Below, piece by piece: positions 1 to 24,406 of a stretch of 64,000 nt of DNA (the stretch's first letter is position 1; each line of letters opens with the position of its first letter). Source of the stretch: Patescibacteria group bacterium (lineage in GTDB: Bacteria; Patescibacteriota; Patescibacteriia; Patescibacteriales; XYC2-FULL-47-12); contig JBAZGH010000001.1 of NCBI GenBank assembly GCA_041652935.1, positions 7,393-71,392 on the forward strand. Direction: 5' to 3'. Under the pieces are notes generated by a model that was given only the letters and a program-made list of their open reading frames with translations, searched no databases and was not told the DNA's origin. The position numbers and the translations under genes were made by a program.

Positions 1-192
1 TCGTTTATTTCATACTTTTGCTTTAAAAGTACTGCCATTTCTTGTCCGATATAGGCAAAGCGTCGTTGAAGTAAAAAACAAATTTTCATATTATTCATTA
101 AGTGTTCAAATTTATATAATTATTGTTAATTTATCATTAATTATGAGGAAGGTCAAGGAAAATAGGGCATTTTAGGGAATTATTGATACTCA

Positions 193-221
193 TTGACACC
201 TTTTGATACTTCTGTTAAAAT
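193..221 (+). promoter_or_regulatory. sigma-70-like promoter with -35 TTGACA (193-198), 17-nt spacer and -10 TAAAAT (216-221). It is flanked by a direct repeat TTGATACT (183-190 and 203-210).
   Basis: Read directly. The hexamers and spacing are near consensus. The ATG at 228 lies about 7 nt after the -10, which suggests a leaderless transcript. Confidence 0.5.
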
Positions 222-227
222 ATTAAC

Positions 228-476
228 ATGAATACAGAAATAAAACCAGACAATGTTTATACTACAGCCGAAACTCAAAAACTATTGAAAATAAGCAATA
301 GTACTATTAAACGCATGCTAAAAAAGGGGTTAATAAGAGCTAATAAAGTCGGCGGACAATATCGTATTTTAGGTAAAGAAATTTTGCGTCTACTTTCTCC
401 TGAAGTTGAAAAACAAGCAGTTAGATCTTATTTAAGATTAAAAGATAGGGTTGTGAATAAAATTAATAAATGGTAA
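228..476 (+). CDS. Small helix-turn-helix DNA-binding protein of the excisionase/MerR-like HTH_17 family
   Basis: 82 aa. The motif TTAETQKLLKISNSTIKRMLKKGLIRANKVGGQYRI matches the excisionase-family HTH pattern. Confidence 0.6.
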   Translation: MNTEIKPDNVYTTAETQKLLKISNSTIKRMLKKGLIRANKVGGQYRILGKEILRLLSPEVEKQAVRSYLRLKDRVVNKINKW

Positions 477-492
477 TAATTAAAAAATTAGT

Positions 493-1506
493 ATGTTTAA
501 GAAAAATTCAACTTTCATAATTGCCGAGGTCGGAATTAATCATAATGGCAATTTAAAAATTGCTAAAAAATTAATAACTGCTGCTAAAAAATGCGGCGCA
601 GACGCAGTAAAGTTTCAAAGCTTTAAAACCGAAGAATTAATCATAAAAGAATCAAAAAAAGCTGAGCACGTTAAAGGCAAGCAAAGTTTTTTTGAAATGA
701 TAAAAAGCTGGGAGCTTTCTGATAGTGATTATATAAAGTTGGCTGATTTTGCAAAAAAAGAAGGAATTATCTTTTTTGCTTCAATTTTTGGTAAACAATC
801 TTTAAATATAATGGAAAAAATTAAAGCGCCGCTTTATAAAATAGCATCTTGTGATTTAAATAATCATTATTTGTTAAAAAAAGTTGCTAAAACAAAAAAG
901 CCCATTATTATTTCAGTCGGCATGGGTGATATCAATGAAATAAACCAAGCAGTTAAGATTTTAGAAAAAAATAATAATGAATTAGGAATTTTGCATTGTG
1001 TTTCACTTTATCCGCCACAAGCGCAAGAATTGAATTTACAGCGTATCGCTTTATTAAAGAAAAAATTCCCCAAGCACATAGTTGGTTATTCTGACCATAC
1101 TTTAGATATTTTTACTCCAGCATCAACCATTCTCTTGGGAGCGGAAATCATTGAAAAGCATTTTACACTTGATAAGAATATGCCAGGTCCCGATCAGCCC
1201 AGTTCAGCCAATCCGGCAGAATTTAAGAAAATGGTTGAAGAAATCAGATTTTTAGAAAAGGCAATCAATCATCAGGAAAAAAAGATTACCCCATCAGCCC
1301 GAGAAAAAAAGATGAGTAAGGTTTTTAGGCGCAGTTTGGTTGCTGAAATTAATATTCCCAAAAATACAGTTATTACCGAGGCTATGTTGGGCGTTAAACG
1401 GCCGGGAACAGGCATTCCTTCTTCAGTGATGGATAAAGTAATAGGTAAAAAAGCAAAAATTAATTTAATAAAAAATGCGATGATAAAATACTCTAATTTA
1501 AAGTGA
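493..1506 (+). CDS. N-acetylneuraminate (nonulosonic acid) synthase of the NeuB/PseI/LegI family
   Basis: 337 aa. The N-terminus IAEVGINHNGNLKIAKKLI..GADAVKFQSF is a NeuB TIM-barrel signature. A C-terminal SAF-like region is present. Confidence 0.8.
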   Translation: MFKKNSTFIIAEVGINHNGNLKIAKKLITAAKKCGADAVKFQSFKTEELIIKESKKAEHVKGKQSFFEMIKSWELSDSDYIKLADFAKKEGIIFFASIFGKQSLNIMEKIKAPLYKIASCDLNNHYLLKKVAKTKKPIIISVGMGDINEINQAVKILEKNNNELGILHCVSLYPPQAQELNLQRIALLKKKFPKHIVGYSDHTLDIFTPASTILLGAEIIEKHFTLDKNMPGPDQPSSANPAEFKKMVEEIRFLEKAINHQEKKITPSAREKKMSKVFRRSLVAEINIPKNTVITEAMLGVKRPGTGIPSSVMDKVIGKKAKINLIKNAMIKYSNLK

Positions 1507-2480
1507 TGAAGAAGATAAATATTTTAGGTAAAATAAATAAAGATAATTATCAGGAATTCAACGATTCTGACTTTTTAGGTTATGAAGTTTATTTAAAATC
1601 TCAGGATGATTTTGAGCATTTACCGAAGATGACGCAACGATTAAATATTATATCAGTTCATCAGCCCAGCCGAAATTTTAATCTATGTTCAAATGATGAA
1701 GTTGGGAAAGAATCTTTTAATACAGTATTAAAAATGTTGGAATCACTTAACGCTGGCGGTTATCGAAAAATTGTAGTAGTTCATGGCGCTTTTTTCGATG
1801 AAGATGCTTCCAGTAAGCCAGATCATTTAAAAATTTTAGCAGAAAGAATAGATGAATTAGCGCAATTGTTTCCCAAGATTAAAATTACCCTAGAAAATGA
1901 TGTTTGGTTTTTTAATCAAAGTAAAAACAAGCGGGCATTATTAGTTGAAGCAGATGATTTTTTAGAATTAAAAAAATATTTAAAAACCAATCTTTATATT
2001 ACTTTAGATTTTGAACATATTTGGATATCGTCTGTCTTCAAAAATTTTATTGATAATAGCCCGCAATTTTATTTTGAAATTAAAAATTTAGCAGATTTAG
2101 ACAAACCAGAAGCAGCGGCTGTTAAAAAAGTATGGCTGGAATATTTGCAGAAAAATAAAAATAAAATGGATGATATGGCTTTAAAATTTTTAAAAGAATA
2201 TGAAAAATTAAAATCATCAATAATTAATTTTCATCTAAACGGTTCTAATATGCTTAAATATTGGTTTGATTCAAAAACATTTATTCCGCTTATAGGCGAG
2301 CATCTATGCATTAAAGATGTTGATGATATTTTAAATCACCAGCTTATTAAAAATAATATTAAAAATTTAACAGAACAAAGTGAAGCTAATTTAGTTTTAG
2401 AGATATGGCCTAGAAATACTAAACAATATGTTGTTGAATTAAAAAAATCAGGCCAGATAGCTAAAAAAATATATGCTTAA
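1503..2480 (+). CDS. Hypothetical protein, possibly a xylose-isomerase-like TIM-barrel sugar isomerase/epimerase
   Basis: 325 aa. Scattered His/Glu/Asp motifs (ISVHQP, LENDVWFF, DFEHIW, NFHLNGS, LEIWP) resemble the metal-binding residues of AP-endonuclease-2/xylose-isomerase-like barrels. Homology is weak. Confidence 0.3.
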   Translation: MMKKINILGKINKDNYQEFNDSDFLGYEVYLKSQDDFEHLPKMTQRLNIISVHQPSRNFNLCSNDEVGKESFNTVLKMLESLNAGGYRKIVVVHGAFFDEDASSKPDHLKILAERIDELAQLFPKIKITLENDVWFFNQSKNKRALLVEADDFLELKKYLKTNLYITLDFEHIWISSVFKNFIDNSPQFYFEIKNLADLDKPEAAAVKKVWLEYLQKNKNKMDDMALKFLKEYEKLKSSIINFHLNGSNMLKYWFDSKTFIPLIGEHLCIKDVDDILNHQLIKNNIKNLTEQSEANLVLEIWPRNTKQYVVELKKSGQIAKKIYA

Positions 2481-3114
2481 AAATAAAAAAAATATTATTA
2501 TTATCGGCGCGGGTGAAAATGGGGAAGTAGCTTTAAATTGTTTGCTGCAGTACAAAAAAGAATGGAAATTCATTGGTTTTTTAGATGATACTTTTAGCAA
2601 GAATAAAGAGCAAAAAATAATTGGAAAAGTAAATGATTATAAAAAGTATAAAAATAGTTATTTTTATATTGCAATCGGCGATAATTCGGCTCGCCGAAAG
2701 GTATTTGAAAGTTTAAAAAAAGCCAATTGTTTTTTTATTAATTTAATTCATCCCAAAGCTTTTATTGAAAAAAATGTTTGTTTGGGAGAAAGCGTTTTCG
2801 TAGGAGCAAACGTTTATGTTAATATTAAGTGCGCTATTGGCGATAATACTATTATAAACAACGGTTGTATTATTGAACATCATAATACCATCGGGCAACA
2901 TTGCCATTTAGCGCCCGGCGTAATTACCGGCGGAGGCGTGAAAATTAATAATAATGTTTTTATCGGACTAAACAGCGTAATTAGAGACCATGTTGAAATT
3001 AAAAATAATGTTTCTATTGGAATGGGATCTGTGATTACAAAAGACATTTCTTCAGGATTATTAGTTCATAATAATTTACGAATAAAAAGTAAAAAATATG
3101 GGCAAGGAAATTAA
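2473..3114 (+). CDS. Hexapeptide-repeat sugar O/N-acyltransferase (NeuD/PglD/PseH-like)
   Basis: 213 aa. The N-terminal Rossmann-like stretch IIIGAGENGEVALNCL is followed by left-handed beta-helix hexapeptide repeats (IG.N..I...C.I). Confidence 0.7.
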   Translation: MLKNKKNIIIIGAGENGEVALNCLLQYKKEWKFIGFLDDTFSKNKEQKIIGKVNDYKKYKNSYFYIAIGDNSARRKVFESLKKANCFFINLIHPKAFIEKNVCLGESVFVGANVYVNIKCAIGDNTIINNGCIIEHHNTIGQHCHLAPGVITGGGVKINNNVFIGLNSVIRDHVEIKNNVSIGMGSVITKDISSGLLVHNNLRIKSKKYGQGN

Positions 3115-3799
3115 AAAAGCAAAAAATATTTGTTTAATCCCGGCTCGAGGGGGGTCTAAAAGAATTCCTAAAAAAAATATTATTGATTTTTGCGGCAAGC
3201 CTTTAATAGCGCGCACAATTGAGGTTGCCATAAAATCAAAATTATTTAAAGAAATATATATTAGTTCTGATTCGGAAGAAATTTTAAAAATAGCTAGTCG
3301 TTATAAAGTCAAACAAATAAGACGACCAGTCAAACTCGCCAGCAGTAGTGCATTATTGGAAAATGTCACCCTGCATTTATTAAATAATATTTCGGATAAT
3401 TTTGATTATTTATGTCTGTTGATGCCCAATTGCCCCCTGCGCCTTTCGGAAGATATAAAAAAATCATATAAAAAATTAATAAAATCAAAAGCGAATTGTT
3501 TAATGAGCGTGGTTGATTATCATTGGTTAAATCCTTTCTGGGTCATGCAGGAAAAAAATAATCATCTAAAAATGCTTTTTGGCAATAAATATTTTGTTAA
3601 TAATTTTCAAAAATTGCCGCAAGATGTTTATTGCCCGACCGGCGTAGTACGCTGGGTCAAAATTAATAATTTTTTAAAAGAAAAAAAATATTATGGAAAA
3701 GATTTAATAAAATATGAAGTGCCTTTTGAAAGAGGGGTTGACATTGATACTTATCAGGATTTAGAGCTAGCTAAGAAGTTTTATAAAATATTAAAATAA
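3098..3799 (+). CDS. Acylneuraminate cytidylyltransferase (CMP-nonulosonic acid synthetase, NeuA/LegF-like)
   Basis: 233 aa. The N-terminal ICLIPARGGSKRIPKKNI is the CTP_transf_3 motif. Confidence 0.8.
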   Translation: MGKEIKKAKNICLIPARGGSKRIPKKNIIDFCGKPLIARTIEVAIKSKLFKEIYISSDSEEILKIASRYKVKQIRRPVKLASSSALLENVTLHLLNNISDNFDYLCLLMPNCPLRLSEDIKKSYKKLIKSKANCLMSVVDYHWLNPFWVMQEKNNHLKMLFGNKYFVNNFQKLPQDVYCPTGVVRWVKINNFLKEKKYYGKDLIKYEVPFERGVDIDTYQDLELAKKFYKILK

Positions 3800-3817
3800 T
3801 CCATTTAATTAAGAAGT

Positions 3818-4600
3818 ATGCCAAAAAAAATTAATGACGATAATTGGAAAATATGGGATGAATTTAATGTTTACGGTGATATTCTATATAAAAGAGCGAT
3901 TGGCAAAATAGAAGAGATGCAGTCAGCTAAAAGTATCTGTAAATTATTGCCGTCGTTTTATAAAAAGGGGATGAGTCTTTTGGATGTAGGGTGTGGAGCC
4001 GGGCATTATTTGCGGAGTTTGCAGTTAAGATTAGATAAAAATATAAAATATACGGGTGTTGACGCTACCAAGAATTATATTAAGTTGGCCAAAAAAGCAT
4101 TTGGTTCAAAAGCGAATTTTTTAACAGGCGACATTTTCAATTTGCCATTTAATGATAAAGCTTTTGATATTGTAATGTGTAATAATGTTATATTGCATTT
4201 ACCGCCGCCGCCGACAAAAGCAATTTCAGAATTAATTCGAGTAGCTAAAAAATATATAGTTATTCGTACTGTTATTGGTGAAAGAAATTATATAATTAAA
4301 GAGGTCAGAAATTTTAATGAAGGGGCAAAGCTTAAAGTTAAAGATGAAGATTTAATCGGCAAAAATGGATATCCGCTTTCTTATAATTTTTTTAATATGT
4401 ATACCACTGAATATTTAAAAGGTATCATTAATAGAATCGACAAAAATTTAGAGGTTAAGATTGTTTCTGATAATGAGTGGAAATCATTTAATAACAGAAA
4501 GATAGCCGGCGCTTTAGCTACTAAAGTTATTGACGGCAGGCAAGTTTCCGGAAATTTAATGCTTGACTGGAGATATATAATTGTAAAGAAAAAAATATAA
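3818..4600 (+). CDS. Class I SAM-dependent methyltransferase
   Basis: 260 aa. Motif I is LLDVGCGAGHY. Confidence 0.7.
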   Translation: MPKKINDDNWKIWDEFNVYGDILYKRAIGKIEEMQSAKSICKLLPSFYKKGMSLLDVGCGAGHYLRSLQLRLDKNIKYTGVDATKNYIKLAKKAFGSKANFLTGDIFNLPFNDKAFDIVMCNNVILHLPPPPTKAISELIRVAKKYIVIRTVIGERNYIIKEVRNFNEGAKLKVKDEDLIGKNGYPLSYNFFNMYTTEYLKGIINRIDKNLEVKIVSDNEWKSFNNRKIAGALATKVIDGRQVSGNLMLDWRYIIVKKKI

Positions 4601-4616
4601 AATTTATTTATCGTTT

Positions 4617-5747
4617 ATGAAGTTAAAAGAGTATCCCATAGCCAGACCGTTTATTGGCAAGAAAGAGGAGGGGTATGTTTTGGAAGTTTTACGCTCCGGT
4701 GTTTTAAGCATGGGAAAAAAGATTGAAGAATTTGAAAAATTATTTGCCAAGCATATTAGAACTAAATATGCCTGCGCGGTATCCAGTGGAACTGCTGGTC
4801 TTCATCTAATTATGATTGCAACGGATATTAAATCCGGAGATGAAGTAATTACCACTCCTTTTTCCTTTATAGCTTCAGCCAATTCTATTTTGTACGTTGG
4901 CGCTAAGCCGGTGTTTGTTGATATTAATCCTAATACATACAATATAGATGTTAATAAAATAGAAGAAAAAATTACCAAAAAAACTAAAGCTATTTTGGTG
5001 GTGCATATTTTTGGGCAAACAGCTGACATGAAGCCAATAAAAGCTATTGCCAAAAAATATAAGCTCAAAATTATTGAAGATGCCTGCGAGTCAATCAGCG
5101 CTTCTTATGATGGCCAACAGGCCGGAACCTTCGGCGAGTCAGCGGTATTTGCTTTTTATCCCAACAAGCAATTAACTACCGGAGAAGGCGGTATGATAGT
5201 TACAAATAAAAAGAAAATTTACGATTTATGCGTAAGCTTGCGCAACCAAGGGCGGGCAAAAAATATGCAATGGCTTGACCATGAATATTTAGGTTATAAT
5301 TATCGCATGGATGAAATGAGCGCGGCAGTAGGATTGGCTCAACTGGAAAAAATAAATTGGATGATTGCCGAACGTCGTAAAATCGCAAAATGGTATAATA
5401 AATATTTATCTTCTTATACTGATTTAGTACAGTTGCCGATAACCGCTAAGGGAAATAAACATAGCTGGTTCGTATATGTGATCAAATTAGTGCCAAAAAA
5501 TATTAATCGGAATAAAATTATAAATCAATTGAAACTTAAAAAAATTTATACTAAGCTCTATTTACCAGCAATTCATTTATTTGATTTTTATAGAAAGTTG
5601 CATGGTTATAAAAGGGGGGATTTTCCACAAACCGAAAAAGCCGCTGATGTATGCCTAGCCTTGCCTTTTTATATCGGCTTAAAGGAAAAAGATGTAAAAT
5701 ATATCGTTGATCAGTTATTAATCATTATAAAAAAATATGAAAAATAA
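4617..5747 (+). CDS. DegT/DnrJ/EryC1/StrS-family PLP-dependent sugar aminotransferase (PseC/LegC-like)
   Basis: 376 aa. It has the typical DegT layout, with AVSSGTAGLHL and a lysine-containing region. Confidence 0.8.
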   Translation: MKLKEYPIARPFIGKKEEGYVLEVLRSGVLSMGKKIEEFEKLFAKHIRTKYACAVSSGTAGLHLIMIATDIKSGDEVITTPFSFIASANSILYVGAKPVFVDINPNTYNIDVNKIEEKITKKTKAILVVHIFGQTADMKPIKAIAKKYKLKIIEDACESISASYDGQQAGTFGESAVFAFYPNKQLTTGEGGMIVTNKKKIYDLCVSLRNQGRAKNMQWLDHEYLGYNYRMDEMSAAVGLAQLEKINWMIAERRKIAKWYNKYLSSYTDLVQLPITAKGNKHSWFVYVIKLVPKNINRNKIINQLKLKKIYTKLYLPAIHLFDFYRKLHGYKRGDFPQTEKAADVCLALPFYIGLKEKDVKYIVDQLLIIIKKYEK

Positions 5748-6789
5748 ATTATTAAATGAATTTAAAGGTAAGCGAATTTTAGTGACTGGTGGAACAGGCT
5801 CTATCGGATCAACAATTGTTAAAGAGCTTTTAAAGTACCGACCGCGCCAAATTCGTATTTTTAGTCGTGATGAAACCAAGCAATTTGAATTAATGCATCA
5901 AATTAGTTCCTCAGTCCCAGTTAATTTTTTAATTGGTGATGTGCGGGATAAAGACCGTTTAAGCATGGCGATGGAAAATATTGATATTGTTTTTCACGCG
6001 GCAGCGCTTAAGCACGTAACGGCTTGCGAAAGAAATCCCTTCGAAGCGATGAAAACTAATGTTCAAGGGACGCAGAATATGATTGATTGCGCCTTTGCCA
6101 ATAAGGTTGATAAAGTGATCGTGATTTCCACTGATAAAGCAACCGACCCGGCTAATGTGATGGGGTGCACCAAACTTTTAGCTGAAAAAATGGTTTTAGC
6201 CAGCTTCTTTTATAAAGGGAACAAAAATACTAAAATTTGCTGTGTTCGGTTCGGCAATGTTTTAGGTTCTCGTGGTTCAGTAGTCCCTTTATTTATTAAT
6301 CAAATAAAACGTAATCAGCCAGTTACCATTACTGACCCCAACATGACCAGATTTTTCATGTCTATTGAACAAGCGGTTCAATTGGTATTTAAATCCGCTG
6401 TTATGACAAAAAATTGTGAAATTTTTGTATTAAAAATGCCGGTAATAGCCATTAAAGATCTAGCTAAAGCTGTTATTGAAATTTTTCAAGAAAAAAATAA
6501 AATTAAGTTAAATATCCCCATTAAAATTATTGGAAAAAGGGGAGGTGAACGGATTTACGAAAAGCTTTTAACCGCAGAGGAATCGTTGGGAGCGCTAGAG
6601 ACAGATGAGATGTTTATCGCTCTCCCAAGTTTAATAGATCCAAAACCGGGATATGAATTTTTAAAAGACAATTATTATCCTGGCGCCAAGAAAGCCAAAA
6701 TAGGGGAATACTTATCAAAAGATATTAAAAAAATGCCAATTAAAAAAATTAAGGAATTATTATTATCTAATAAAGATTTAGATTTTTAA
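5737..6789 (+). CDS. UDP-N-acetylglucosamine 4,6-dehydratase (PseB/CapD/LegB-like short-chain dehydratase)
   Basis: 350 aa. The N-terminal ILVTGGTGSIGS is an NAD(P)-binding motif, and the polysaccharide-dehydratase core is present. Confidence 0.8.
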   Translation: MKNKLLNEFKGKRILVTGGTGSIGSTIVKELLKYRPRQIRIFSRDETKQFELMHQISSSVPVNFLIGDVRDKDRLSMAMENIDIVFHAAALKHVTACERNPFEAMKTNVQGTQNMIDCAFANKVDKVIVISTDKATDPANVMGCTKLLAEKMVLASFFYKGNKNTKICCVRFGNVLGSRGSVVPLFINQIKRNQPVTITDPNMTRFFMSIEQAVQLVFKSAVMTKNCEIFVLKMPVIAIKDLAKAVIEIFQEKNKIKLNIPIKIIGKRGGERIYEKLLTAEESLGALETDEMFIALPSLIDPKPGYEFLKDNYYPGAKKAKIGEYLSKDIKKMPIKKIKELLLSNKDLDF

Positions 6790-6805
6790 AATATTAAAAA
6801 TTACT

Positions 6806-14160: not shown

Positions 14161-14163
14161 AAT

Positions 14164-14955
14164 ATGAAAAAAAATAAACAAAAAAACCTATGCATAATCC
14201 AAGCCCGTTATGGATCGACTCGTTTACCGGGCAAAGTTTTAAAGAAGGTTGATGGGCTTACTTTACTTGAATATGAAATAATTAGAGTTAAGCAGGCGAA
14301 AAAAATTGATAAAATTGTCATAGCAACCACTAAAAATAAATCCGACAAGAAAATTGAAGAATTATGCCAAAGAATAAAAATAGATTGTTTTTGCGGTTCA
14401 GAAAATGACGTATTAGATCGTTACTATCAATGTTCCTTGGAATACCCCGAATATAAAAATGTTATTCGGATTACTGGAGATTGTCCATTAATTGATCCGG
14501 TGATAATTGATAAAGTCATTAGTTTTTTTACCAAGAGAAAGCTTGATTATACTAGTAATATTGAGTTAGATACTTTTCCTGACGGTATGGATGTAGAAAT
14601 TTTTAAAAAAGACATTTTAATTGAAACTGCTAAAAGAGCTAAATTACCCTCAGAACGAGAACATGTTACTTATTATATCCGAAAAAATAAAAAATATAAA
14701 AAAGGAAATTTAACCGCGTGTAATAACTGGTCTCATTTTCGCTTAACAGTCGATGAACCAATTGATTTTGAGGTTATAAAATTTTTAATTAAAAATAGTA
14801 AAATTACTGATGGATACTTAGATTATATCTCGCTTTTAACTAAGAATCCAAAAGTAATGCTTAGTAATATTAATATTATTAGAAATGAGTGGAAATTAAA
14901 AGCTTTAAAAGAAGACGGAGAATTTAAAAAACAATATGCCAAAAAAATTCACTAA
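14164..14955 (+). CDS. CMP-sugar cytidylyltransferase (SpsF/PseF-like)
   Basis: 263 aa. CIIQARYGSTRLPGKVL is the SpsF/PseF-type motif. Confidence 0.75.
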   Translation: MKKNKQKNLCIIQARYGSTRLPGKVLKKVDGLTLLEYEIIRVKQAKKIDKIVIATTKNKSDKKIEELCQRIKIDCFCGSENDVLDRYYQCSLEYPEYKNVIRITGDCPLIDPVIIDKVISFFTKRKLDYTSNIELDTFPDGMDVEIFKKDILIETAKRAKLPSEREHVTYYIRKNKKYKKGNLTACNNWSHFRLTVDEPIDFEVIKFLIKNSKITDGYLDYISLLTKNPKVMLSNINIIRNEWKLKALKEDGEFKKQYAKKIH

Positions 14956-16225: not shown

Positions 16226-16226
16226 T

Positions 16227-16838
16227 ATGAATTCAACTAAGGTGTTATTTATTTTAGGTGGTGGATTAGTAAAAAAAGATAATAAATGGAGAACTACCAA
16301 TTTCAAGGAAGGAGATAAATTTGGCGCTTCAGGCGATAGGTTAAGGGTGGTGGCTGGAAGCTGTTTATATAAAAATAATTCAGAATATTTAATAATAACA
16401 TCAGGCGGCAAGGGGCAATATAAAAACGTTCCAAATTCTCTAACTGTAGCCGAGGTAATGAGACGAGAATTATTAGAGCTAGGCGTATTAGAGGAGACAA
16501 TAATAAAGGAAGAGGAATCTAGCAATACTTGGGAGCAATTACAACAGTTAAAAAAGATTATTCAAAAAGAAAATTTTATTAAAATAAAAATTCTTTCCAG
16601 TAGATATCATTTACCACGTGTGCGGGCGATGATTGAAGTTGATGGCAGATTAAATGAAATATTTAAAAAAGAAGTATTAGAATTAGTTTCTGCTGAAGAA
16701 ATTTTAATTAAACACAATGAAAATAAGTGGAAGAATTTTATTGAAAAAGCATATTCAAGCGAGGCTATGAAAAAAAGAATTACTTTAGAAAAACAGGGGA
16801 TTAAACAAATTAAAAACGGTACTTATAGTTTAAAATAA
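16227..16838 (+). CDS. DUF218 (YdcF/SanA/ElyC-like) domain protein
   Basis: 203 aa. The stretch ILGGG...ITSGGKG...SRYHLPR is typical of DUF218. Confidence 0.55.
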   Translation: MNSTKVLFILGGGLVKKDNKWRTTNFKEGDKFGASGDRLRVVAGSCLYKNNSEYLIITSGGKGQYKNVPNSLTVAEVMRRELLELGVLEETIIKEEESSNTWEQLQQLKKIIQKENFIKIKILSSRYHLPRVRAMIEVDGRLNEIFKKEVLELVSAEEILIKHNENKWKNFIEKAYSSEAMKKRITLEKQGIKQIKNGTYSLK

Positions 16839-16840
16839 TT

Positions 16841-17905
16841 ATGAAATATATTGAAATTAAAACTCCTAAAGGAAAAAGAAAAATTGGTCCAGGCCAGCCA
16901 GTATTTATAATCGCTGAAATGTCCGGTAATCACAACCAATCTTTTGCGCGCGCCAAGAAAATAATTGATGCCGCGGTTGACGCTGGAGTTGATGCAATAA
17001 AGCTGCAAACTTATACCGCCGATACAATGACGATAGATTGCGATAAAAAATATTTCCAAGTAAAAGTTAATGACGCGTGGAAAGGGCAAAGTTTATATCA
17101 ATTATATAAAAAAGCTTACACGCCATGGAAGTGGCAACCAAAATTAAAAAAATATGCGGAAAGTAAGGGTTTAGTTTGTTTTTCTACTCCTTTTGATGAA
17201 ACTGCAGTTGATTTTTTGGAAAAGATGAACGTACAACTTTATAAAATTGCCTCATTTGAAGTAGTTGATATTCCATTACTTAAAAAAATTGGAAAAACTA
17301 GAAAGCCAGTAATTATGTCACGTGGCATGGCTTCAATTGAAGAAATTAAGCTGGCGGTTAAGACGCTGAAAGATAATGGCGCGCCACATGTCGCAGTTCT
17401 CCATTGTGTAAGTTCATATCCAGCTAAATCGGAACAAATGAACTTAGCTACTATTCCAGATATTACTAAAAAGTTTAAAGTAATATCCGGTTTATCTGAT
17501 CATACCTTAGGAATCGTTGCATCCTTAATTTCCGTAGCTTTAGGCGCCTGCATCATTGAAAAACATTTTACTTTACGTAGGTCTGACGGAGGTCCAGACG
17601 CTAATTTTTCTTTAGAGCCGAATGAATTAAAAGAATTAGTTAAAAATGTGAGAGAATCAGAAAAAGCTATTGGTAAGCCAAATTATGTAATCAAAGGATC
17701 AGATGAGCAAAAAATGAGAAATTATCGAAGATCTCTCTTTGTTGTTAAGGAAATTAAGAAAGGAAATTTAATAACTTATGAAAATGTCAAATCAATTCGT
17801 CCTAGTTATGGACTGCCACCTAAGTATTTAGACAAAGTTATTAAGAAAAGAGCTAGCAAGGATTTAAGTATTGGCACCCCCTTATCTTTTAATTTAATAA
17901 AATAA
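16841..17905 (+). CDS. Pseudaminic/N-acetylneuraminic acid synthase family (NeuB/PseI-like)
   Basis: 354 aa. IIAEMSGNHNQSFARAKKIIDAAVDAGVDAIKLQTY is a NeuB signature. This is the second copy in the locus. Confidence 0.8.
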   Translation: MKYIEIKTPKGKRKIGPGQPVFIIAEMSGNHNQSFARAKKIIDAAVDAGVDAIKLQTYTADTMTIDCDKKYFQVKVNDAWKGQSLYQLYKKAYTPWKWQPKLKKYAESKGLVCFSTPFDETAVDFLEKMNVQLYKIASFEVVDIPLLKKIGKTRKPVIMSRGMASIEEIKLAVKTLKDNGAPHVAVLHCVSSYPAKSEQMNLATIPDITKKFKVISGLSDHTLGIVASLISVALGACIIEKHFTLRRSDGGPDANFSLEPNELKELVKNVRESEKAIGKPNYVIKGSDEQKMRNYRRSLFVVKEIKKGNLITYENVKSIRPSYGLPPKYLDKVIKKRASKDLSIGTPLSFNLIK

Positions 17906-17911
17906 AATTAA

Positions 17912-18700
17912 ATGTCAGAAAAAAAAGTAAAAAAAATTCATAATTTTTGGAATGAACGCGCCAAAGAGCATAAAACAAGTTATTTAGCTACAGTACCAGA
18001 TAAATTCTTAAAAGAATTAGAGATTAAAAATATTTTGAAATATATTCCTAAGAAAAAAATTAAAGTCGTTGATATTGGTTGTGGTAATGGATTTTCTACT
18101 ATTGCTTTTGCCAAAGAAAGACAAGCTGATTTTTTAGGAGTTGATTATTCAGAAAATATGATTGAGCAGGCTCAAAAAATATTACTTCAACGCAAAAAAA
18201 AAATCAAAGGAAAGGTACGATTTATATCGGGTAATATTTTAAATTTAAATTTTTTATCGCCAGCTACTCATGATATTGTATCAACCGATCGTTGTTTAAT
18301 AAATTTAGTCTCTTTATCAGATCAAAAAAAAGCAATTAAGGAAATATCAAGAGTATTAAAAAAGGGCGGTAAGTATATAATGTGCGAAGATACCAAGGAA
18401 GGATTAAGGAAACTTAATGAATTACGTATTTTGGCTGGTCTTGAAGCTATTCCTAATCATTGGCATAATTTATACTTAAATGAAAAAGAATTGCTACCAT
18501 ATATAGAAAGATATTTTAAAATTATTAAAATTGATAATTTTTCCAGCTTATATTATATTGCTTCCCGTATTTTCAATGCCGTATCAGCAATAGATATAAA
18601 AACCCCCAATTATTTAAGCGTTATTAATAAAACAGCTACTAAACTGCCTTCAATTGGAGATTATTCACCTTTAAAAATATTTTATTTAGAGAAAAAATAA
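17912..18700 (+). CDS. Class I SAM-dependent methyltransferase
   Basis: 262 aa. Motif I is VVDIGCGNGFST. Confidence 0.7.
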   Translation: MSEKKVKKIHNFWNERAKEHKTSYLATVPDKFLKELEIKNILKYIPKKKIKVVDIGCGNGFSTIAFAKERQADFLGVDYSENMIEQAQKILLQRKKKIKGKVRFISGNILNLNFLSPATHDIVSTDRCLINLVSLSDQKKAIKEISRVLKKGGKYIMCEDTKEGLRKLNELRILAGLEAIPNHWHNLYLNEKELLPYIERYFKIIKIDNFSSLYYIASRIFNAVSAIDIKTPNYLSVINKTATKLPSIGDYSPLKIFYLEKK

Positions 18701-18703
18701 TAC

Positions 18704-19375
18704 ATGAATTATGTTATTGCCAGTATAAAATCATGGAATGAAGATAATTATAAAATTTTTTTTGATAAGAGTAAAAATTTTTATTTGATAACTAATAAAA
18801 AAGATTTAACATTTGCTAAATTAAAAAAAATAAATCCTAAATATATTTTTATTCCACATTGGTCTTGGATAATACCGGAAAGTATCTGGAGTAATTTTAA
18901 TTGCGTAGTTTTTCATATGACTGATTTGCCATATGGGCGCGGTGGCACTCCCTTGCAAAATTTAATTTTGCGTGGTCATAAAACCACAAAAATATCAGCT
19001 ATTAAAGTTAACAGAGGGATTGACACGGGAAATATTTATTTGAAAGAAAGTTTAAGCTTAAATGGAAGCGCTGAAGAGATTTATCAACGTGCATCAAAGA
19101 TTATTTTTAATAAAATGATTCCTAAAATTATAAAAAATAATCCAATTCCAAAGAAACAATGCGGAAAAATTGTAAAATTTAATCGCAGAAAACCAGGACA
19201 AAGCGAGATTTCCTCAGGCATGAATTTAAAAAAAGTTTATGATCAAATTAGGATGTTGGATGCGGAAGATTACCCCAGAGCATATTTAAAGACTAAAAAA
19301 TTGAAATTTAATTTTTCTAAAGCTCAATTAAAAAATAAAAAATTAATTGCTAATGTTGAAATATATGAAGAATAA
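18704..19375 (+). CDS. Formyltransferase-family protein (sugar N-formyltransferase-like, Fmt N-domain)
   Basis: 223 aa. FHMTDLPYGRGGTPLQNLIL resembles the H-x-S-L-L-P-x-x-R-G catalytic motif of formyl transferases. Confidence 0.6.
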   Translation: MNYVIASIKSWNEDNYKIFFDKSKNFYLITNKKDLTFAKLKKINPKYIFIPHWSWIIPESIWSNFNCVVFHMTDLPYGRGGTPLQNLILRGHKTTKISAIKVNRGIDTGNIYLKESLSLNGSAEEIYQRASKIIFNKMIPKIIKNNPIPKKQCGKIVKFNRRKPGQSEISSGMNLKKVYDQIRMLDAEDYPRAYLKTKKLKFNFSKAQLKNKKLIANVEIYEE

Positions 19376-20042
19376 TATTTTAGTAATAGCTGCCCATCCT
19401 GATGACGAAATATTAGGCATAGGCGGTACAATTTTAAAGCATATTAAAAACGGTGATCAAGTTAGCATCTTAATCCTAGGGGATGGTGAAAGTTCAAGAA
19501 TGAGTGCGACTGCGGTTGATATTGCAAAAAGAAAAGAACAAGTTAAAGAAGTAGCTAAAAAATTAAAAATTAAAAATATTTTTATTGATGAATTACCTGA
19601 TAATAAATTTGATTCAGTAAGTTTGCTAGAAATAATTAAAAAAATAGAAACTATAATAAATAAGATAAAACCAAATATTATTTATACACATCATGCGCAT
19701 GATTTAAACATTGATCATTGTTTGACTTTTCAAGCAGTGTTAACTGTTTGTCGACCTCAGCCAGATTTTTTTGTGAAAAAAATATTAACCTTTGAAACTT
19801 TATCTTCAACCGAATGGCAAATTAAAAATGGACAAAATAATTTTTGTCCAAACGAATATGTTAATATTGAAAAATTTATTAATAAAAAAATTGAAATTTT
19901 AGAGATATACAAAGATGAATTGAGAGATTGCCCTCATCCTCGTTCGATTGAAGGTGTAAAAGTTTTAGCCAAATATAGAGGAATGGAAGTCGGTTATAAA
20001 TACGCTGAAGCTTTTCAAGTAATTAGAAACTTAAATGATTAA
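19347..20042 (+). CDS. PIG-L/LmbE-family N-acetylglucosaminyl deacetylase
   Basis: 231 aa. AAHPDDEILGIGGT is the LmbE zinc-site motif. Confidence 0.75.
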   Translation: MLMLKYMKNNILVIAAHPDDEILGIGGTILKHIKNGDQVSILILGDGESSRMSATAVDIAKRKEQVKEVAKKLKIKNIFIDELPDNKFDSVSLLEIIKKIETIINKIKPNIIYTHHAHDLNIDHCLTFQAVLTVCRPQPDFFVKKILTFETLSSTEWQIKNGQNNFCPNEYVNIEKFINKKIEILEIYKDELRDCPHPRSIEGVKVLAKYRGMEVGYKYAEAFQVIRNLND

Positions 20043-20050
20043 ACAATAAA

Positions 20051-21433
20051 TTACCCCCCGCTCGCATCCCGCCCCAACAACACAGTCCGAATAGTTTTGA
20101 GCATAATAACCAGGTCTAAAAATAAGGACCTGTTTTTTATATAGTATAAATCGTACTGCAGTTTTTTTACCGTGTCCTCTACCGTCGGAGAGTGGTATTC
20201 GCCGCAGACCTGGTCCCAACCGGAAATTCCCGGCTTAACCAGGGTGCGCTCGTTGTAAAAAGGAATTTGTTCTTGCAGTTGGCTTGCCAGATTAGGCCGC
20301 TCCGGACGGGGCCCGATTAAACTCATTTCACCTTTTAAAATATTTATCACTTGCGGTATTTCATCAATTCTAGTATTGCGTAAGAAGTAACCAAACTTAG
20401 TAATGCGGGCATCGTTAGGAACGGTTGGCCGCCCAGTATTTCCCTCCTCGCGCATTGTCCGGAATTTTATTAAGTTAATCGGCCTATTATTTTTTCCGGC
20501 CCGTTCTTGCCTATAAAATATTGTACCGCGGCTTTCTATTTTTATAATGGCTGCGATAATTGGCCAAAACGGCAGGGTGATTAGAAAAATAAAAAGGGCG
20601 ATAATTATATCATAGACCCTTTTTATTTTATCAAACCATGATTTTCCGCCCTCCTGCAGATTTTCTAAAAACCACATTTGGTTAATTGATTCTACTGGAA
20701 TTTTGCCGGTTATTTTTTCATAGAAGTTCGGCAGGCTGGAAAAATTTATTCCCAAGTGCAGGCAGTCAAATAAATTTGATCGGATTTCATTTGAGGTTTG
20801 GGCATCATCAGTCAAAATGACCGAGGAAATTTTATGTTCCAGCAGGTATTTTTTAATATTGGCAATGTCTTTATAATGTTTTACTTCATATAATCCCCGC
20901 TCATAGATATCGCCCTTATATAATACGAAAGATATCCTTAGCCCTAAATGCGGATTATCATTAAAATATTTTATCAATTCTTTTGTTTTTTCGTTATATC
21001 CGATAATCGCTATTTTATTTTTCGGCAAATAAGACTTCAGCGTTTTATTATAAATCTGCCGCCAGATTAAAAATAAAGCCGCGGTAATGACAATATCAAT
21101 CAAAAGATTCCTTTTCGGCGCGATGTTTAAATTAGGCATTAAATAGAAGAAAGCGGAGCCGAGCAGGAAGGAAAAAAACAAAGCCAGCGCGGTATGGGTA
21201 TAAAATTTAGCGTTATTAATCGCGATGGTAAGGTCGTATAAATTGCTGATATAAAAAATCAGCAGCCATAAAATAAAAACGGCTGTAAACGGGCCGATAT
21301 GGTCGGGCCATTGGCGCGGCATGGTTTCGTTCCCATATCTAACCAGCAGAGTTAAATACAATGAAACATATAGTATGCCGATATCGCCCAGCAGAAGAAG
21401 GTATTTTTTAAATTGGAGTGAGTAGTACTTCAT
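20051..21433 (-). CDS. Undecaprenyl-phosphate sugar phosphotransferase (WbaP/PglC-type initiating 'bacterial sugar transferase')
   Basis: 460 aa. The N-terminal half has multiple transmembrane segments. The C-terminal catalytic domain carries the hallmark SLIGPRPERP. GC looks higher than its neighbours. Confidence 0.8.
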   Translation of the reverse strand: MKYYSLQFKKYLLLLGDIGILYVSLYLTLLVRYGNETMPRQWPDHIGPFTAVFILWLLIFYISNLYDLTIAINNAKFYTHTALALFFSFLLGSAFFYLMPNLNIAPKRNLLIDIVITAALFLIWRQIYNKTLKSYLPKNKIAIIGYNEKTKELIKYFNDNPHLGLRISFVLYKGDIYERGLYEVKHYKDIANIKKYLLEHKISSVILTDDAQTSNEIRSNLFDCLHLGINFSSLPNFYEKITGKIPVESINQMWFLENLQEGGKSWFDKIKRVYDIIIALFIFLITLPFWPIIAAIIKIESRGTIFYRQERAGKNNRPINLIKFRTMREEGNTGRPTVPNDARITKFGYFLRNTRIDEIPQVINILKGEMSLIGPRPERPNLASQLQEQIPFYNERTLVKPGISGWDQVCGEYHSPTVEDTVKKLQYDLYYIKNRSLFLDLVIMLKTIRTVLLGRDASGG

Positions 21434-21626
21434 GGGTAGGATTATAGTATATTTTTAAGATAAAAGCAAGTTTAGTTTATCTGAGCGCCAAGAGTTTTTG
21501 GCGCTGGATTTATTTACATTTTTTATTTTTTATGTTATCATATTCGGAACGCTGCTTTAGTTTTAAAAAGCAGTTTTTAGATAGGTCTTTGTAAAAAAAC
21601 GAAAAAAACGAATAGGAGACGGTGCT

Positions 21627-23297
21627 ATGACAAAAAAAATGTTAGCAGAGCTGTTTGTCAGAGCTATCGACCCACAATTTGGAGAAGACAACATCTATCG
21701 GAATCCAGCCCAAATAACCATTTCCTTGGGACCGGTAATGATCGCGACTGTTGTCCAGGAGCGCGTAGCAGGTGTAGAAGCTGAAGTTGTGTCGGAAAAC
21801 AATTTCCGGCCATTTCTAAGAAAAGCTCCCTTGGACGGGAGGGGAATGCCCGACCATCTGGCTTTGCAAAAAGAGCGACCGGCAGAATTCATTTTTATCT
21901 CGGCGAGCATCAGCAACGCGGTCCCACGGGCGCTGGAACTCATCGGCATTTACCGCAACATGCCCGAGGAGCTAAGACCGAAATGGATTGTGGTCGGCGG
22001 CTGGCATGCCGGAGACAGCCCCAAGGAATTTCTGCTTGCCGGGGCCGATATCGTCGTCCATGGCGAAGGCGAGCCCGTCGTTAAGTCAATTATTGACGCG
22101 CTAAAAGGCGATTTGCCGCTGGAAAAAGTGCCTGGGATTTCCTATTGGTCGGCGGACGGGCAGATAAAAAGGAATCCGGTTTTTGACAAGCGCTATGAAG
22201 GGGAAGAGGGGTTTATTATCGTTCCGCCCGAAGAGATGGACCTTTTGCCTTACCCGAATTTCGGACTGGTGCGCTGGGCAAAAATAGAGATAATACCCAT
22301 AAGCAGAACAAGGGGTTGCGGCGGGAAGTGCCGTTTCTGCCGAGTTAAGGGAGAAGCGAGAGTTATTTCCCCAAAACGCCTTGCGGAACAGATAGAATCT
22401 CTGTGCAGCCAGGGGTATAGGCGATTTTTCCTAGTCGACGATCGCTCGGAAGAGGATATGGAAGGATTCATCGCTTGGTTGCAAGAAATAGTGAAATTGC
22501 GAAGGGAGAGGAAAATCCGGTGGATCTACATTACGGTCCAAAGCCGGTTATCCGCCGCCAATGACGAAGAACTGCTGCGGCTGATGCACGAGGCGGGAAT
22601 ACAGACAGTGGCAATCGGGGTTGAATCGGTTATTCCTGAAGAGTTGAGGGCCATGAAGAAGCCTATGAGCCAAGACCTTAATGAAATCGTCAGATTGATC
22701 AAGGTTTGGAAAAAACATGGCTTTTTCACGCATGCGATGCTCATCTTCGGCTATCCAATGCCATCCAAATCCAATCCGTTCCGCATGGATATTAAAGAGC
22801 GCGTCGCCAGATTCTGGTATTTTATCAAGGAGGCAAATCCGGACACGTTGCAGGTTTTAGCCTTAACGCCGATTCTGGGTACAGAGGACTGGCGAGATCT
22901 TGAAAGTCAAAACAGGATCTTCAGGGACTTGGGATGGCAGAATTGGGACGGCCTGCATGTGGTTTTCAGGCCGGATGAGCCCTTAACCGCCCCGCAGGTG
23001 CAGAGGGCTATTATTTATCTGCAGGACAGGTTTTATTCTTTTCTGTGGCTTAACATTCACGGAATTGCTTCTGTGGCGTTGAGAGCTTGCTATATCGGAT
23101 TGCTTGCGTTGGCTATGCCCTTTGTCTGGGCGCTTCTAATGCCTTTTAAGGGATTGGTTCCTAAATTAGCTTTTCGGCCCTGGCACAGGGTATGGCGCAA
23201 CACTATTCGCCGTCTTGGAGCCCAACTGATAGTTTTACGGGTTAAGGAAAAGCTTATTCCCTTCCTGCAAAAACTTGAAGAGCGTGAAGAACGTTAA
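21627..23297 (+). CDS. B12-binding-domain radical SAM protein with a C-terminal hydrophobic membrane anchor
   Basis: 556 aa. There is an N-terminal Rossmann-like B12-binding region. CGGKCRFC is a CX3CX2C motif. The C-terminal about 60 aa are hydrophobic. The gene is markedly GC-rich. Confidence 0.65.
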   Translation: MTKKMLAELFVRAIDPQFGEDNIYRNPAQITISLGPVMIATVVQERVAGVEAEVVSENNFRPFLRKAPLDGRGMPDHLALQKERPAEFIFISASISNAVPRALELIGIYRNMPEELRPKWIVVGGWHAGDSPKEFLLAGADIVVHGEGEPVVKSIIDALKGDLPLEKVPGISYWSADGQIKRNPVFDKRYEGEEGFIIVPPEEMDLLPYPNFGLVRWAKIEIIPISRTRGCGGKCRFCRVKGEARVISPKRLAEQIESLCSQGYRRFFLVDDRSEEDMEGFIAWLQEIVKLRRERKIRWIYITVQSRLSAANDEELLRLMHEAGIQTVAIGVESVIPEELRAMKKPMSQDLNEIVRLIKVWKKHGFFTHAMLIFGYPMPSKSNPFRMDIKERVARFWYFIKEANPDTLQVLALTPILGTEDWRDLESQNRIFRDLGWQNWDGLHVVFRPDEPLTAPQVQRAIIYLQDRFYSFLWLNIHGIASVALRACYIGLLALAMPFVWALLMPFKGLVPKLAFRPWHRVWRNTIRRLGAQLIVLRVKEKLIPFLQKLEEREER

Positions 23298-23308
23298 ATT
23301 TCTAATAA

Positions 23309-23345
23309 CCCCGTTTGAGTTAACACCTCAGCGGGTTTTTATTTT
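23309..23345 (+). terminator. Rho-independent terminator after the radical SAM gene
   Basis: An interrupted GC stem CCCG..TGAG / CTCA.CGGG is followed by TTTTTATTTT. Confidence 0.5.
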
Positions 23346-24403: not shown

Positions 24404-24406
24404 TTT

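Follow-up and report, generated by a model that had tools for sequence, protein, structure and literature searches.

A surface-glycan locus whose place on the chromosome is constant and whose gene content changes from one relative to the next occupies the left end of a 64,000-nt stretch of Patescibacteria contig JBAZGH010000001.1 (hereafter the window). Judged from its sequence, the window belongs to a Falkowbacteria-like bacterium within the Patescibacteria (candidate phyla radiation, CPR), a group whose members are tiny, mostly uncultured and thought to live attached to other cells. Positions 1–23300 comprise the glycan arm and its flanking genes: a block of 21 AT-rich genes at 228–20042 (hereafter the island) headed by a small helix-turn-helix (HTH) gene, a gene for a polyprenyl-phosphate sugar transferase, and a gene for a B12-binding radical SAM protein that is rich in guanine and cytosine (GC). 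Rightward of 23.3 kb lie 42 genes, which serve as the reference backbone. We favour a reading in which this is a swappable surface-sugar locus of fixed position, led by a BldC/Xis-like regulator, with cassettes exchanged in a Patescibacteria gene pool and the radical SAM gene inserted separately; we put the probability of this reading at about 65%. The compositional mosaic is accordingly what a surface-glycan locus with variable cassettes ordinarily looks like, together with one accessory gene that has been inserted beside it, and the less ordinary by-product of the analysis is a BldC-like leader protein with phased repeats that stands before unrelated glycan cassettes. Related loci fetched from other assemblies and metagenomes for comparison carry L-numbers. 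Domain calls are from Pfam and NCBIfam, with equivalog status judged by NCBIfam cut-offs.

The right-hand border of the locus is conserved. In about 25 relatives, the genes for an M50 protease, ribosome recycling factor (RRF), a BNR-repeat protein and HolB stand head-to-head with the sugar-transferase gene, whose closest matches are in Candidatus Falkowbacteria metagenome-assembled genomes (75, 68 and 67%) and then in other Patescibacteria. The spacing between holB and the transferase gene is 83–540 bp in 17 of these relatives, and eight carry an insert of 1–4 kb. By synteny and sequence similarity, the transferase gene is a vertically inherited member of the backbone. The glycan genes beyond it vary by genome. 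The island itself carries two biosynthetic modules, A and B, on either side of an ABC exporter gene and a Capsule_synth-family gene (Table 1); beyond the transferase, L008, L010 and L012 have module B genes (48–77%), L017 and L023 have module A-like genes, and other relatives have unrelated sets. The same variability is seen behind the HTH gene. It is followed by the module B set in L141, L158, L116 and L136, and by the module A cassette in L128 (51–70%) and L171/L172 (87–94%). In most related loci the exporter and Capsule_synth pair comes directly after it, and in L141, L158, L116, L122 and L123 this pair continues into PseB, PseC and onward. L020 has genes for GDP-mannose dehydratase, fucose synthase, Wzm–Wzt, an FkbM methyltransferase and GT10 in this position, and L014 has Wzm–Wzt with an acetyltransferase. 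The next gene is again a glycan gene (GDP-mannose dehydratase, epimerase, Wzm or GT1/GT4) in nine of ten further sampled loci. The chromosomal site is fixed and its glycan cargo is variable.

Comparison with the nearest sister island (L171/L172) indicates how the cargo may change. The two islands are colinear, with 87–91% nucleotide identity, similarly low GC content (0.29–0.31 in the sister) and the same left neighbour. Identity is 0.86–0.94 up to about 8.7 kb and about 0.78 thereafter, and identity at third codon positions drops from 0.72–0.885 in module A and the ABC exporter gene to 0.60–0.62 in the Capsule_synth and PseB genes. This step, at the junction of the exporter and Capsule_synth genes, is a recombination breakpoint, and the sister island is a recombination mosaic. 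The named members of the NeuB1 clade (at least 59% identity) are all Patescibacteria (Harrisonbacteria, Parcubacteria and Doudnabacteria), with the next matches at 48%, and the gene pool therefore appears to lie within the lineage. Cassettes would thus be exchanged through homologous recombination inside a Patescibacteria glycan gene pool.

The island stands apart from the backbone in base composition. In 1-kb windows, GC content is 0.26–0.37 over the first 20 kb, mostly 0.35–0.47 over the remainder, and reaches a peak of 0.51 at 22–23 kb. The initial annotation, made by eye, had described 228–20042 as AT-rich relative to the rest of the window, and the computed values bear this out: the region has a GC content of 0.305 compared with 0.373 for 23298–64000. 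Per gene, GC content is 0.303 ± 0.029 and GC content at third codon positions (GC3) is 0.239 in the 21 island genes, compared with 0.379 ± 0.042 and 0.382 in the 42 backbone genes (Mann–Whitney, p = 3.7e-8 for GC and 3.7e-9 for GC3). To separate codon choice from protein content, the amino acids of each gene were combined with the codon usage of the backbone to give an expected GC3, and the deviation expressed as a synonymous z. GC-ending codons are below expectation in 21 of 21 island genes (synonymous z −2.7 to −7.0), and about 3 points of the 7.7-point GC deficit come from amino-acid composition, the remainder from synonymous choice. The Karlin dinucleotide distance is 64–68 between island and backbone compared with 16 between the two backbone halves. 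Tetranucleotide z-scores correlate at 0.66–0.76 between island and backbone compared with 0.80, which separates the island only weakly. The statistical check that the initial annotation had proposed thus yields a deviation that is significant in GC and GC3 and modest in tetranucleotides. The annotation had also placed the sugar transferase, as a possibly foreign gene, in a GC-rich two-gene block with the radical SAM gene. Its GC content of 0.392 (z 0.3), GC3 of 0.447 (z 1.0) and synonymous z of 3.4 are within the backbone range, and it seems GC-rich only because it adjoins the AT-rich island. The block thus dissolves into one deviating gene, that for the radical SAM protein, and a backbone-like neighbour.

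An AT-rich composition does not require transfer. An old resident glycan operon could have become AT-rich in place, through weak codon selection and residues with AT-rich codons, and several observations fit such a history and weigh against exchange as the source of the composition. Intergenic DNA of the backbone is even more AT-rich (GC 0.268) than the island, and at four-fold sites the island (0.335) is nearer to this value than the backbone (0.50); island composition is therefore closer than backbone composition to the presumed neutral or mutational-equilibrium level. Other envelope genes of the backbone have low GC3 (the GT2 gene at 43220 and the UppP gene at 57846), and the sister island is equally low in GC at 9–13% nucleotide divergence, so that in-place drift could explain much of the AT-richness. 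Glycan genes show a GC3 depression of −0.08 to −0.22 in the Falkowbacteria-like loci L008, L010, L012, L023 and L035. The GC shift of the glycan arm varies among relatives from +0.03 to −0.12, which also counts against exchange, as does the distance to any potential donor: outside the sister strain, island proteins have no match above 77% and the radical SAM protein none above 62%. On the other side, an operon that simply stayed in place does not account for gene content that is wholly different between relatives at the same site, for the divergence step in the sister island, which indicates recombination, or for a dinucleotide signature that differs fourfold. The depression is also absent or reversed in L117 (+0.026), L097 (−0.012) and L007 (+0.017). 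A paired comparison of glycan with backbone GC that drew on every fetched locus did not reach significance (n = 16, p = 0.12; the set mixes unrelated organisms and estimates from single genes), and we claim no universal rule, the consistent depression being confined to Falkowbacteria-like loci with several genes. Residence without transfer covers the composition and leaves the cassette variation aside; as a complete explanation we consider it unlikely, and it is better regarded as a contributing cause. At least in part, the AT-richness is a property of the glycan gene pool and gene class, because the nearest relatives of the island genes are Patescibacteria and a GC depression is often found at the same site in relatives. 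Under the favoured reading of cassette exchange, the island would owe its AT-richness to that pool and not to a recent integrase-mediated import, and selection for GC-ending codons would probably be weaker there as well.

A few genes outside the island have a similar composition. Synonymous GC deficits (z −3.1 to −4.6) occur in the backbone genes for a PTAC phosphotransacylase (41386–41955), a GT2 glycosyltransferase (43220–44281) and UppP/BacA (57846–58658), which hints that envelope and accessory genes of this genome may be generally AT-shifted. The lowest GC content of any gene in the window (0.243, GC3 0.165) belongs to a 132-aa PD-(D/E)XK nuclease-family gene (PF13366; 33577–33975), which stands as a short AT-rich patch between recJ and the genes that follow and has homologues within the glycan operons of L161 (66%) and L111 (43%).

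The HTH gene at the head of the island suggests a further explanation, which was implicit in the initial annotation: an integrative island or other mobile element, with an excisionase (228–476) at its edge and an integrase beyond the window. The encoded protein matches PF12728 (HTH_17) and the TIGR01764 'excise' domain, its homologues are named excisionase in Joint Genome Institute (JGI) annotation, and its predicted fold also resembles those of Pukovnik Xis and RdfS. The atypical GC content of the island and the position of its left flank outside the window would be compatible with such an element. The surroundings of the gene tell against it. No integrase, recombinase or transposase was detected with Pfam among the 21 island genes and two flanking genes, all of which have glycan, transport or enzyme domains. 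Likewise, no recombinase is present among ten compositional-outlier genes elsewhere in the window, and no integrase domain among the Pfam-scanned neighbours in L141, L128, L020 and L014. The initial annotation had proposed looking in the flanks beyond the window for an integrase, a tRNA attachment site or direct repeats, and within the window such features are missing: tRNA genes are found only at 36609–36835 and none lies near the island, tRNA, Rfam and repeat searches revealed no features resembling attachment (att) sites, no meaningful direct repeats occur around 19.9–23.5 kb, and there is no second copy of the repeat motif described below. HTH homologues occur in hundreds of loci (72–94% identity), always heading a glycan operon and often after the backbone transferase, and the same chromosomal site carries different cargo in relatives. 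The glycan block is not an integrative island, and we consider a mobile element in any form very improbable.

Nor does the HTH gene mark the edge of the locus, as had been supposed. Positions 1–89 encode the start of a divergent gene whose product matches (tblastn, 62–69%) the N termini of the HTH-divergent genes in L113, L093, L091, L104, L128 and L141. The divergent open reading frames of L141 and L128 carry PF05159 (Capsule_synth), and the sister locus L172 has the same divergent gene. In relatives, further glycosyltransferase genes, radical SAM genes and a flippase gene lie beyond the divergent Capsule_synth gene. The left neighbour of the HTH gene is thus another glycan gene, which places the HTH gene in the interior of a glycan locus that extends leftward past the start of the window. 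Of the horizontally exchanged surface-polysaccharide island that had been proposed, an exchangeable glycan cluster remains; its mobile-island character and a recent import from outside the lineage do not.

The HTH protein is a conserved leader of glycan operons across the lineage. Homologues are found in more than 316 metagenome loci with 72–87% identity over all 82 residues, and in 2,444 protein clusters; the best 120 clusters are about 82 aa long and 76–94% identical, and those with an organism name are from Patescibacteria. In an alignment of 35 sequences, 36 of 82 columns are invariant. At loci that also show the backbone, it is the best-conserved protein, at 70–79% compared with 37–60% for RRF, HolB, the BNR-repeat protein, the M50 protease and the transferase. 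Among the loci viewed, the HTH gene is always first in a same-strand glycan operon of varying content. It directly follows the backbone transferase gene in L014, L020, L021, L097 and L117 and is a few hundred bases to several kilobases downstream of it in L166, L102 and L163; both orientations exist, with the operon converging on the transferase gene in the window and L161. In L098 (2277–5175) and L099, a Fic-domain gene directly follows the HTH_17 gene and is itself followed by a partial second HTH_17 copy (3781–3909), as if an insertion had copied a portion of the leader gene.

Structure prediction relates this protein to DNA-binding regulators. An AlphaFold model (predicted local distance difference test score, pLDDT, 81.7) has a strand–helix–helix–hairpin–helix winged-helix fold followed by a 24-residue C-terminal helix (residues 58–81). 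The best folds in the Protein Data Bank (PDB) by Foldseek are the BldC–DNA complexes 6AMA and 6AMK, with template-modelling (TM) scores of 0.77–0.84 normalized to BldC, a root-mean-square deviation of 1.2–1.7 Å and 24–25% identity; RacA, GlnR/TnrA, Pukovnik Xis and RdfS rank lower. Two points temper this relationship. The Foldseek E-values are weak for so small a domain (3e-3 at best), and phmmer single-sequence and profile searches of the PDB with the HTH protein gave no match, none to BldC, so that Pfam HTH_17 is the only sequence class the two proteins share.

The DNA upstream of the HTH gene carries a matching regulatory signature. The near-consensus promoter noted in the initial annotation is present, with TTGACA and TAAAAT separated by 17 nt (193–221; 11 of 12 consensus positions), and overlaps three direct repeats of TTGAYAC with a 10-nt period. 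The ATG of the HTH gene lies 6 nt after the −10 element, and because of this spacing the operon mRNA is probably leaderless or has a very short leader. Nowhere else in the window is there a match to the triple repeat at 183–209, and shuffled sequence gives an expectation of 0. Of 87 HTH_17 genes, 65 have the double repeat in the 120 nt before them, with 98 occurrences in total; in 2.16 Mb it is found at 19 other places, most of them 150–400 nt ahead of a same-strand HTH_17 gene. The same promoter architecture is found upstream of the HTH_17 genes in L014, L020, L021 and L090–L169, with the consensus tTGAyACCTATTGACACCTtTTGAcAC and a start codon usually 17–19 nt past repeat 3, or 44–57 nt in some loci. 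We infer that the protein would bind head-to-tail on the three phased repeats, which cover the −35 element and the spacer, and that such binding would control its own operon and perhaps also the divergent Capsule_synth gene. The HTH_17 protein is thus probably an operon regulator and not a mobile-element excisionase; the domain matches behind the excisionase-family label hold, and the function it implies does not sit with a lineage-wide glycan-operon leader that has no mobile-element genes among its annotated neighbours. A more speculative role, to which we attach little probability, is that protein and repeats together form a Patescibacteria-wide 'adaptor' module, set before any glycan cassette, in which an Xis-like filament not only regulates transcription but also serves as an anchor or hotspot for cassette exchange or operon inversion, the operon being known in tandem and in convergent orientation to the transferase gene. 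If true, regulation and diversification of the cell surface would be coupled in episymbiotic bacteria.

The gene for the B12-binding radical SAM protein probably has a separate history. As the initial annotation had noted, 21627–23297 is GC-rich, with a GC content of 0.500 and a GC3 of 0.558 (z about +2.9 by gene); with 0.429 expected for GC3, its synonymous z of +6.8 exceeds that of all 42 backbone genes (maximum 4.5). The gene interrupts the adjacency of holB and the transferase gene and is absent there in most relatives; no target-site repeats were found at the insertion. Its product has a radical SAM domain (PF04055, 55.8 bits) with the motif CGGKCRFC (CX3CX2C) and a B12-binding PF02310 match of 30.7 bits against a cut-off of 32.1, a domain that precomputed Pfam annotation lists for nearly all homologues. 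It belongs to no NCBIfam equivalog, all matches being far below cut-offs (at most 76 bits compared with 251–750). The C terminus is hydrophobic and rich in Trp and Arg, and the nearest solved structure is the methylase MgmA (9CCB, E = 7.5e-9). The family comprises about 46 clusters (best match 62%) with named members in Moranbacteria, Parcubacteria, Hydrogenedentes and Acidimicrobiia/Actinobacteria, and the neighbours of homologues elsewhere are mutually unrelated. In a rough neighbour-joining tree, the window subclade falls beside sequences from Hydrogenedentes and a 62%-GC host, apart from a Moranbacteria clade. Because a conserved adjacency is interrupted, the synonymous GC excess is large and the family is patchy, the radical SAM gene was plausibly acquired separately, from a GC-richer genome. 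The second acquisition from a GC-rich donor that had been proposed for both genes is therefore plausible for this gene and not for the transferase. The event would have inserted one gene, which has a promoter-like site and a terminator-like hairpin of its own, at a spot that collects inserts: a Fic protein gene occupies it in L011, and genes for large surface proteins do so in L023, L031, L033 and L034.

High GC content might instead be intrinsic to this radical SAM family, set by its amino acids and codon preference and uninformative about horizontal origin. Amino acids alone predict a GC content of 0.448 compared with 0.382 for the backbone and so supply about half of the excess, which counts against a foreign source. 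All three sequenced members of the subclade are 9–12 GC points above their hosts, and the GC content of the gene tracks that of the host: it matches in the GC-rich hosts L087 and L089 (0.593 compared with 0.624, and 0.677 compared with 0.687) and is nearly host-like in one low-GC host (0.395 compared with 0.375), whereas in four low-GC hosts including the window it is 6–12 points higher than the host, with a GC3 excess of 0.08–0.18. A family-wide codon rule is nonetheless at odds with the homologues in L088 and L007, which are host-like in GC3, and an intrinsic property explains neither a synonymous excess above every backbone gene nor the patchy contexts and phyletic distribution, nor why most relatives lack the gene at this site. 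We therefore regard this explanation as doubtful, although it deserves some weight.

B12-type radical SAM genes recur beside or in the glycan locus in L007, L009/L035, L015, L018, L019 and L128, which adds to the case for an intrinsic GC content and suggests a functional tie to glycan or lipid-carrier modification. In the Falkowbacteria-like genomes L009 (1123–3117) and L035 (7827–9824), exactly this place between holB and the transferase gene is taken, in this orientation, by the gene for another B12-type radical SAM protein of 665 aa, whose C terminus is rich in Trp and Arg. The two versions share 80% identity, and their identity to the protein of the window is about 26%. In L007, the closest relative by transferase sequence, a 34%-identical family member is in tandem with the transferase gene. 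The L007 and L035 genes have host-like GC content. The L007 gene argues against a separate acquisition, as the association may be old and the allele replaced. We considered whether a radical SAM gene is ancestral at the site, given that L007, L009 and L035 carry one, and rejected this on the basis of the low identities (34% and about 26%) and host-like GC content. These cases represent recurrent association or an insert hotspot and not orthology. Within the favoured reading of a separate insertion, the protein may be a cobalamin-dependent enzyme of methylase type that acts in the pathway of the glycan or of its lipid carrier.

The GC content changes abruptly near 20.0, 21.6 and 23.3 kb, and in a metagenome-assembled genome such steps could also betray an assembly or binning chimera of organisms with different GC content, a possibility that the initial annotation had raised. 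The steps fall on gene boundaries, and the same backbone–transferase–glycan layout recurs in dozens of unrelated assemblies. Logan contig L170, an independent assembly of 11,063 bp, corresponds to window positions 15669–26731 with 0 mismatches and spans both junctions. Given this identity, a chimera is very unlikely and has next to no probability in our assessment.

The island genes together specify two routes to acidic nine-carbon sugars (Table 1). All 21 genes are on the plus strand and are packed or overlapping, which indicates a single operon. Its protein products point to two cytidine monophosphate (CMP)-nonulosonic-acid pathways together with predicted means of export and attachment. The PseB, PseC and PseI proteins of module B pass their NCBIfam equivalog cut-offs (449, 460 and 482 bits compared with 408, 424 and 340), and module B is accordingly predicted to be a bona fide pseudaminic-acid-type route. 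In module A, only NeuD is above its cut-off; the synthase, dehydratase, aminotransferase and cytidylyltransferase are below the Pse, Leg and Neu equivalog cut-offs, and the module appears to be a second, Patescibacteria-specific NeuB-family nonulosonic-acid route. Two different nine-carbon acidic sugars are therefore predicted to be made. No operon protein matches PseH or PseG in NCBIfam, and the module B cytidylyltransferase scores 27 bits for PseF and that of module A 162 bits against a cut-off of 206; non-orthologous replacements of PseH, PseG and PseF are possible. With the Bac_transf initiating phosphoglycosyl transferase, two NeuB/CMP-synthetase pathways, the Capsule_synth protein and the ABC exporter, the locus has the gene types of a surface-polysaccharide locus, for initiation, sugar-nucleotide synthesis, transfer and export. 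The operon and the convergent sugar-transferase gene end 8 bp apart (20043–20050), and terminator-like hairpins are found only within the coding region of the opposite gene (plus strand, 20111–20132; minus strand, 19850–19829).

Table 1 Features of the glycan arm and its flanks in the 64,000-nt window
Feature	Position	Strand	Basis and remarks
Start of divergent gene, first 29 codons (MKICFLLQRRFAYIGQEMAVLLKQKYEIN)	1–89	−	N terminus of an approximately 500-aa protein of the Capsule_synth (PF05159) family
Three direct repeats TTGAYAC, 10-nt period, proposed HTH_17 operator	183–189, 193–199, 203–209	+	The −35 element coincides with repeat 2, and the spacer contains repeat 3
Sigma-70-type promoter, TTGACA-17-TAAAAT, extended −10 TG	193–221	+	11/12 matches
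HTH_17 protein, 82 aa	228–476	+	Pfam PF12728, NCBIfam TIGR01764
Module A: NeuB-family synthase	493–1506	+	Pfam
Module A: xylose-isomerase-like TIM barrel	1503–2480	+	Pfam
Module A: NeuD/PglB-family acetyltransferase	2473–3114	+	Pfam; NeuD NCBIfam passed
Module A: CMP-sugar synthetase	3098–3799	+	Pfam
Module A: methyltransferase	3818–4600	+	Pfam
Module A: DegT aminotransferase	4617–5747	+	Pfam
Module A: 4,6-dehydratase	5737–6789	+	Pfam
MsbA/PglK-like ABC exporter	6806–8599	+	Pfam, NCBIfam
Capsule_synth-family protein, putative CMP-ulosonic-acid transferase	8596–10044	+	Pfam, NCBIfam; transferase activity predicted
Module B: PseB	10053–11048	+	Pfam, NCBIfam
Module B: PseC	11045–12157	+	Pfam, NCBIfam
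Module B: radical SAM/SPASM protein	12165–13166	+	Pfam
Module B: GFO/IDH/MocA oxidoreductase	13219–14160	+	Pfam
Module B: cytidylyltransferase	14164–14955	+	Pfam
Module B: class III aminotransferase	14936–16225	+	Pfam
Module B: DUF218 protein	16227–16838	+	Pfam
Module B: PseI	16841–17905	+	Pfam, NCBIfam
Module B: methyltransferase	17912–18700	+	Pfam
Module B: formyltransferase	18704–19375	+	Pfam
Module B: PIG-L deacetylase	19347–20042	+	Pfam
Sugar transferase (Bac_transf; N-terminal membrane/CoA_binding_3 region), polyprenyl-phosphate	20051–21433	−	Pfam; convergent with the operon
AT-rich divergent intergenic region with promoter-like site for the radical SAM gene at 21513–21541 (TTTACA-17-TATCAT, TG) and AGGAGA ribosome-binding site	21434–21626		Scan; function predicted
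B12-binding radical SAM protein, 556 aa	21627–23297	+	Pfam; CX3CX2C motif in RGCGGKCRFCRV
Spacer with imperfect hairpin and T-run (about 23310–23345) and promoter-like site for holB (23349–23377)	23298–23383	+	Hairpin by eye, not called by the scanner
holB (DNA polymerase III delta′), BNR-repeat protein, ribosome recycling factor, M50 protease	23384–27420	+	Pfam, synteny

Two features of the backbone lie apart from these subjects. A 627-bp stretch at 59508–60134, after a minus-strand CAP-domain gene, is gene-free, has a GC content of 0.22 and has no Rfam match. The plus-strand open reading frames at 52953–53678 and 53474–54223 overlap by about 200 nt, which may reflect a mis-called start or a frameshift.

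The mosaic itself adds little, being the familiar signature of a swappable surface-sugar locus. It implies that Patescibacteria diversify their surface as pathogens do: the locus stays in place, its cassettes can be exchanged, and the sugars are nine-carbon acids related to sialic acid. Full-text literature searching for the names of the group together with 'pseudaminic acid' or 'nonulosonic' turned up no paper that deals with this. The 'excisionase' label that the 82-aa protein routinely receives invites mobile-element misreadings. Together, the leader protein and its motif provide a testable handle on surface-glycan regulation in an uncultured phylum and a sequence marker for such loci in metagenomes.

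Each part of the locus has counterparts among known systems. The radical SAM protein resembles class B enzymes (MgmA, OxsB, HpnR/HpnJ and BchE) in having a B12-binding-like N terminus followed by a CX3CX2C radical SAM core, and differs from the characterized subfamilies (BchE, HpnR/J, PhpK and MgmA) in NCBIfam scores far below cut-offs, a distinctive C terminus and a family of about 46 clusters. The island resembles the Pse/Leg islands of Campylobacter and Helicobacter in its PseB, PseC and PseI equivalogs, CMP-sugar synthetases, methyltransferase and formyl or acyl tailoring enzymes, and in carrying two nonulosonic-acid pathways side by side at a hypervariable locus. Unlike those islands, it has no flagellin, Maf transferases or recognizable PseG or PseH. 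It exports by an ABC transporter, adds a radical SAM/SPASM protein, a GFO oxidoreductase, a class III aminotransferase, DUF218 and PIG-L proteins, and has second-pathway enzymes that score below all matched Pse, Leg and Neu equivalog cut-offs.

In organization, the locus is closest to the O-antigen and capsule clusters of Enterobacteria (Salmonella and E. coli rfb), which likewise combine a fixed site, conserved flanks, swapped content and recombination mosaics, contain genes for sugar-nucleotide synthesis, transfer and export, and have a GC content below that of the genome, in segments. It differs in its cargo, two nonulosonic-acid pathways with an MsbA/PglK-type exporter, and in an operon headed by a BldC-like protein with phased repeats instead of JUMPstart/ops with RfaH. 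The Patescibacterium host presumably also lacks an outer membrane and lipopolysaccharide. In Salmonella, rfb genes have 28–45% GC and the genome as a whole 51–52%, a difference that has classically been taken as a sign of horizontal origin (PMC3715488).

The leader protein shares its winged-helix fold class and TIGR01764 match with phage and integrative conjugative element excisionases (lambda Xis, Pukovnik Xis 4J2N and RdfS 8DGL). Xis proteins also bind phased direct repeats. Unlike excisionases, the leader protein has no integrase, att sites or mobile-element genes near it in the window or in annotated related loci; it is chromosomal, syntenic and conserved across a phylum-level group, always with glycan genes after it. 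Its best structural match is Streptomyces BldC (6AMA and 6AMK), likewise a small MerR-like winged-helix protein without an effector domain. On direct repeats, BldC assembles cooperatively into head-to-tail multimers, and many of its homologues have been labelled excisionase- or resolvase-like recombination proteins (PMC5859096). On the DNA side, the same-orientation repeats one helical turn apart in the leader gene's own promoter are similar to this arrangement. The differences are in sequence and scope: the leader protein has no detectable sequence match to any PDB entry, its repeat is TTGAYAC compared with AATT-N4-C for BldC, and it has an extra 24-residue C-terminal helix (58–81), whereas the BldC family is without a coiled-coil dimerization helix. 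Finally, BldC is a pleiotropic developmental regulator, and the protein of the window is tied to one type of operon.

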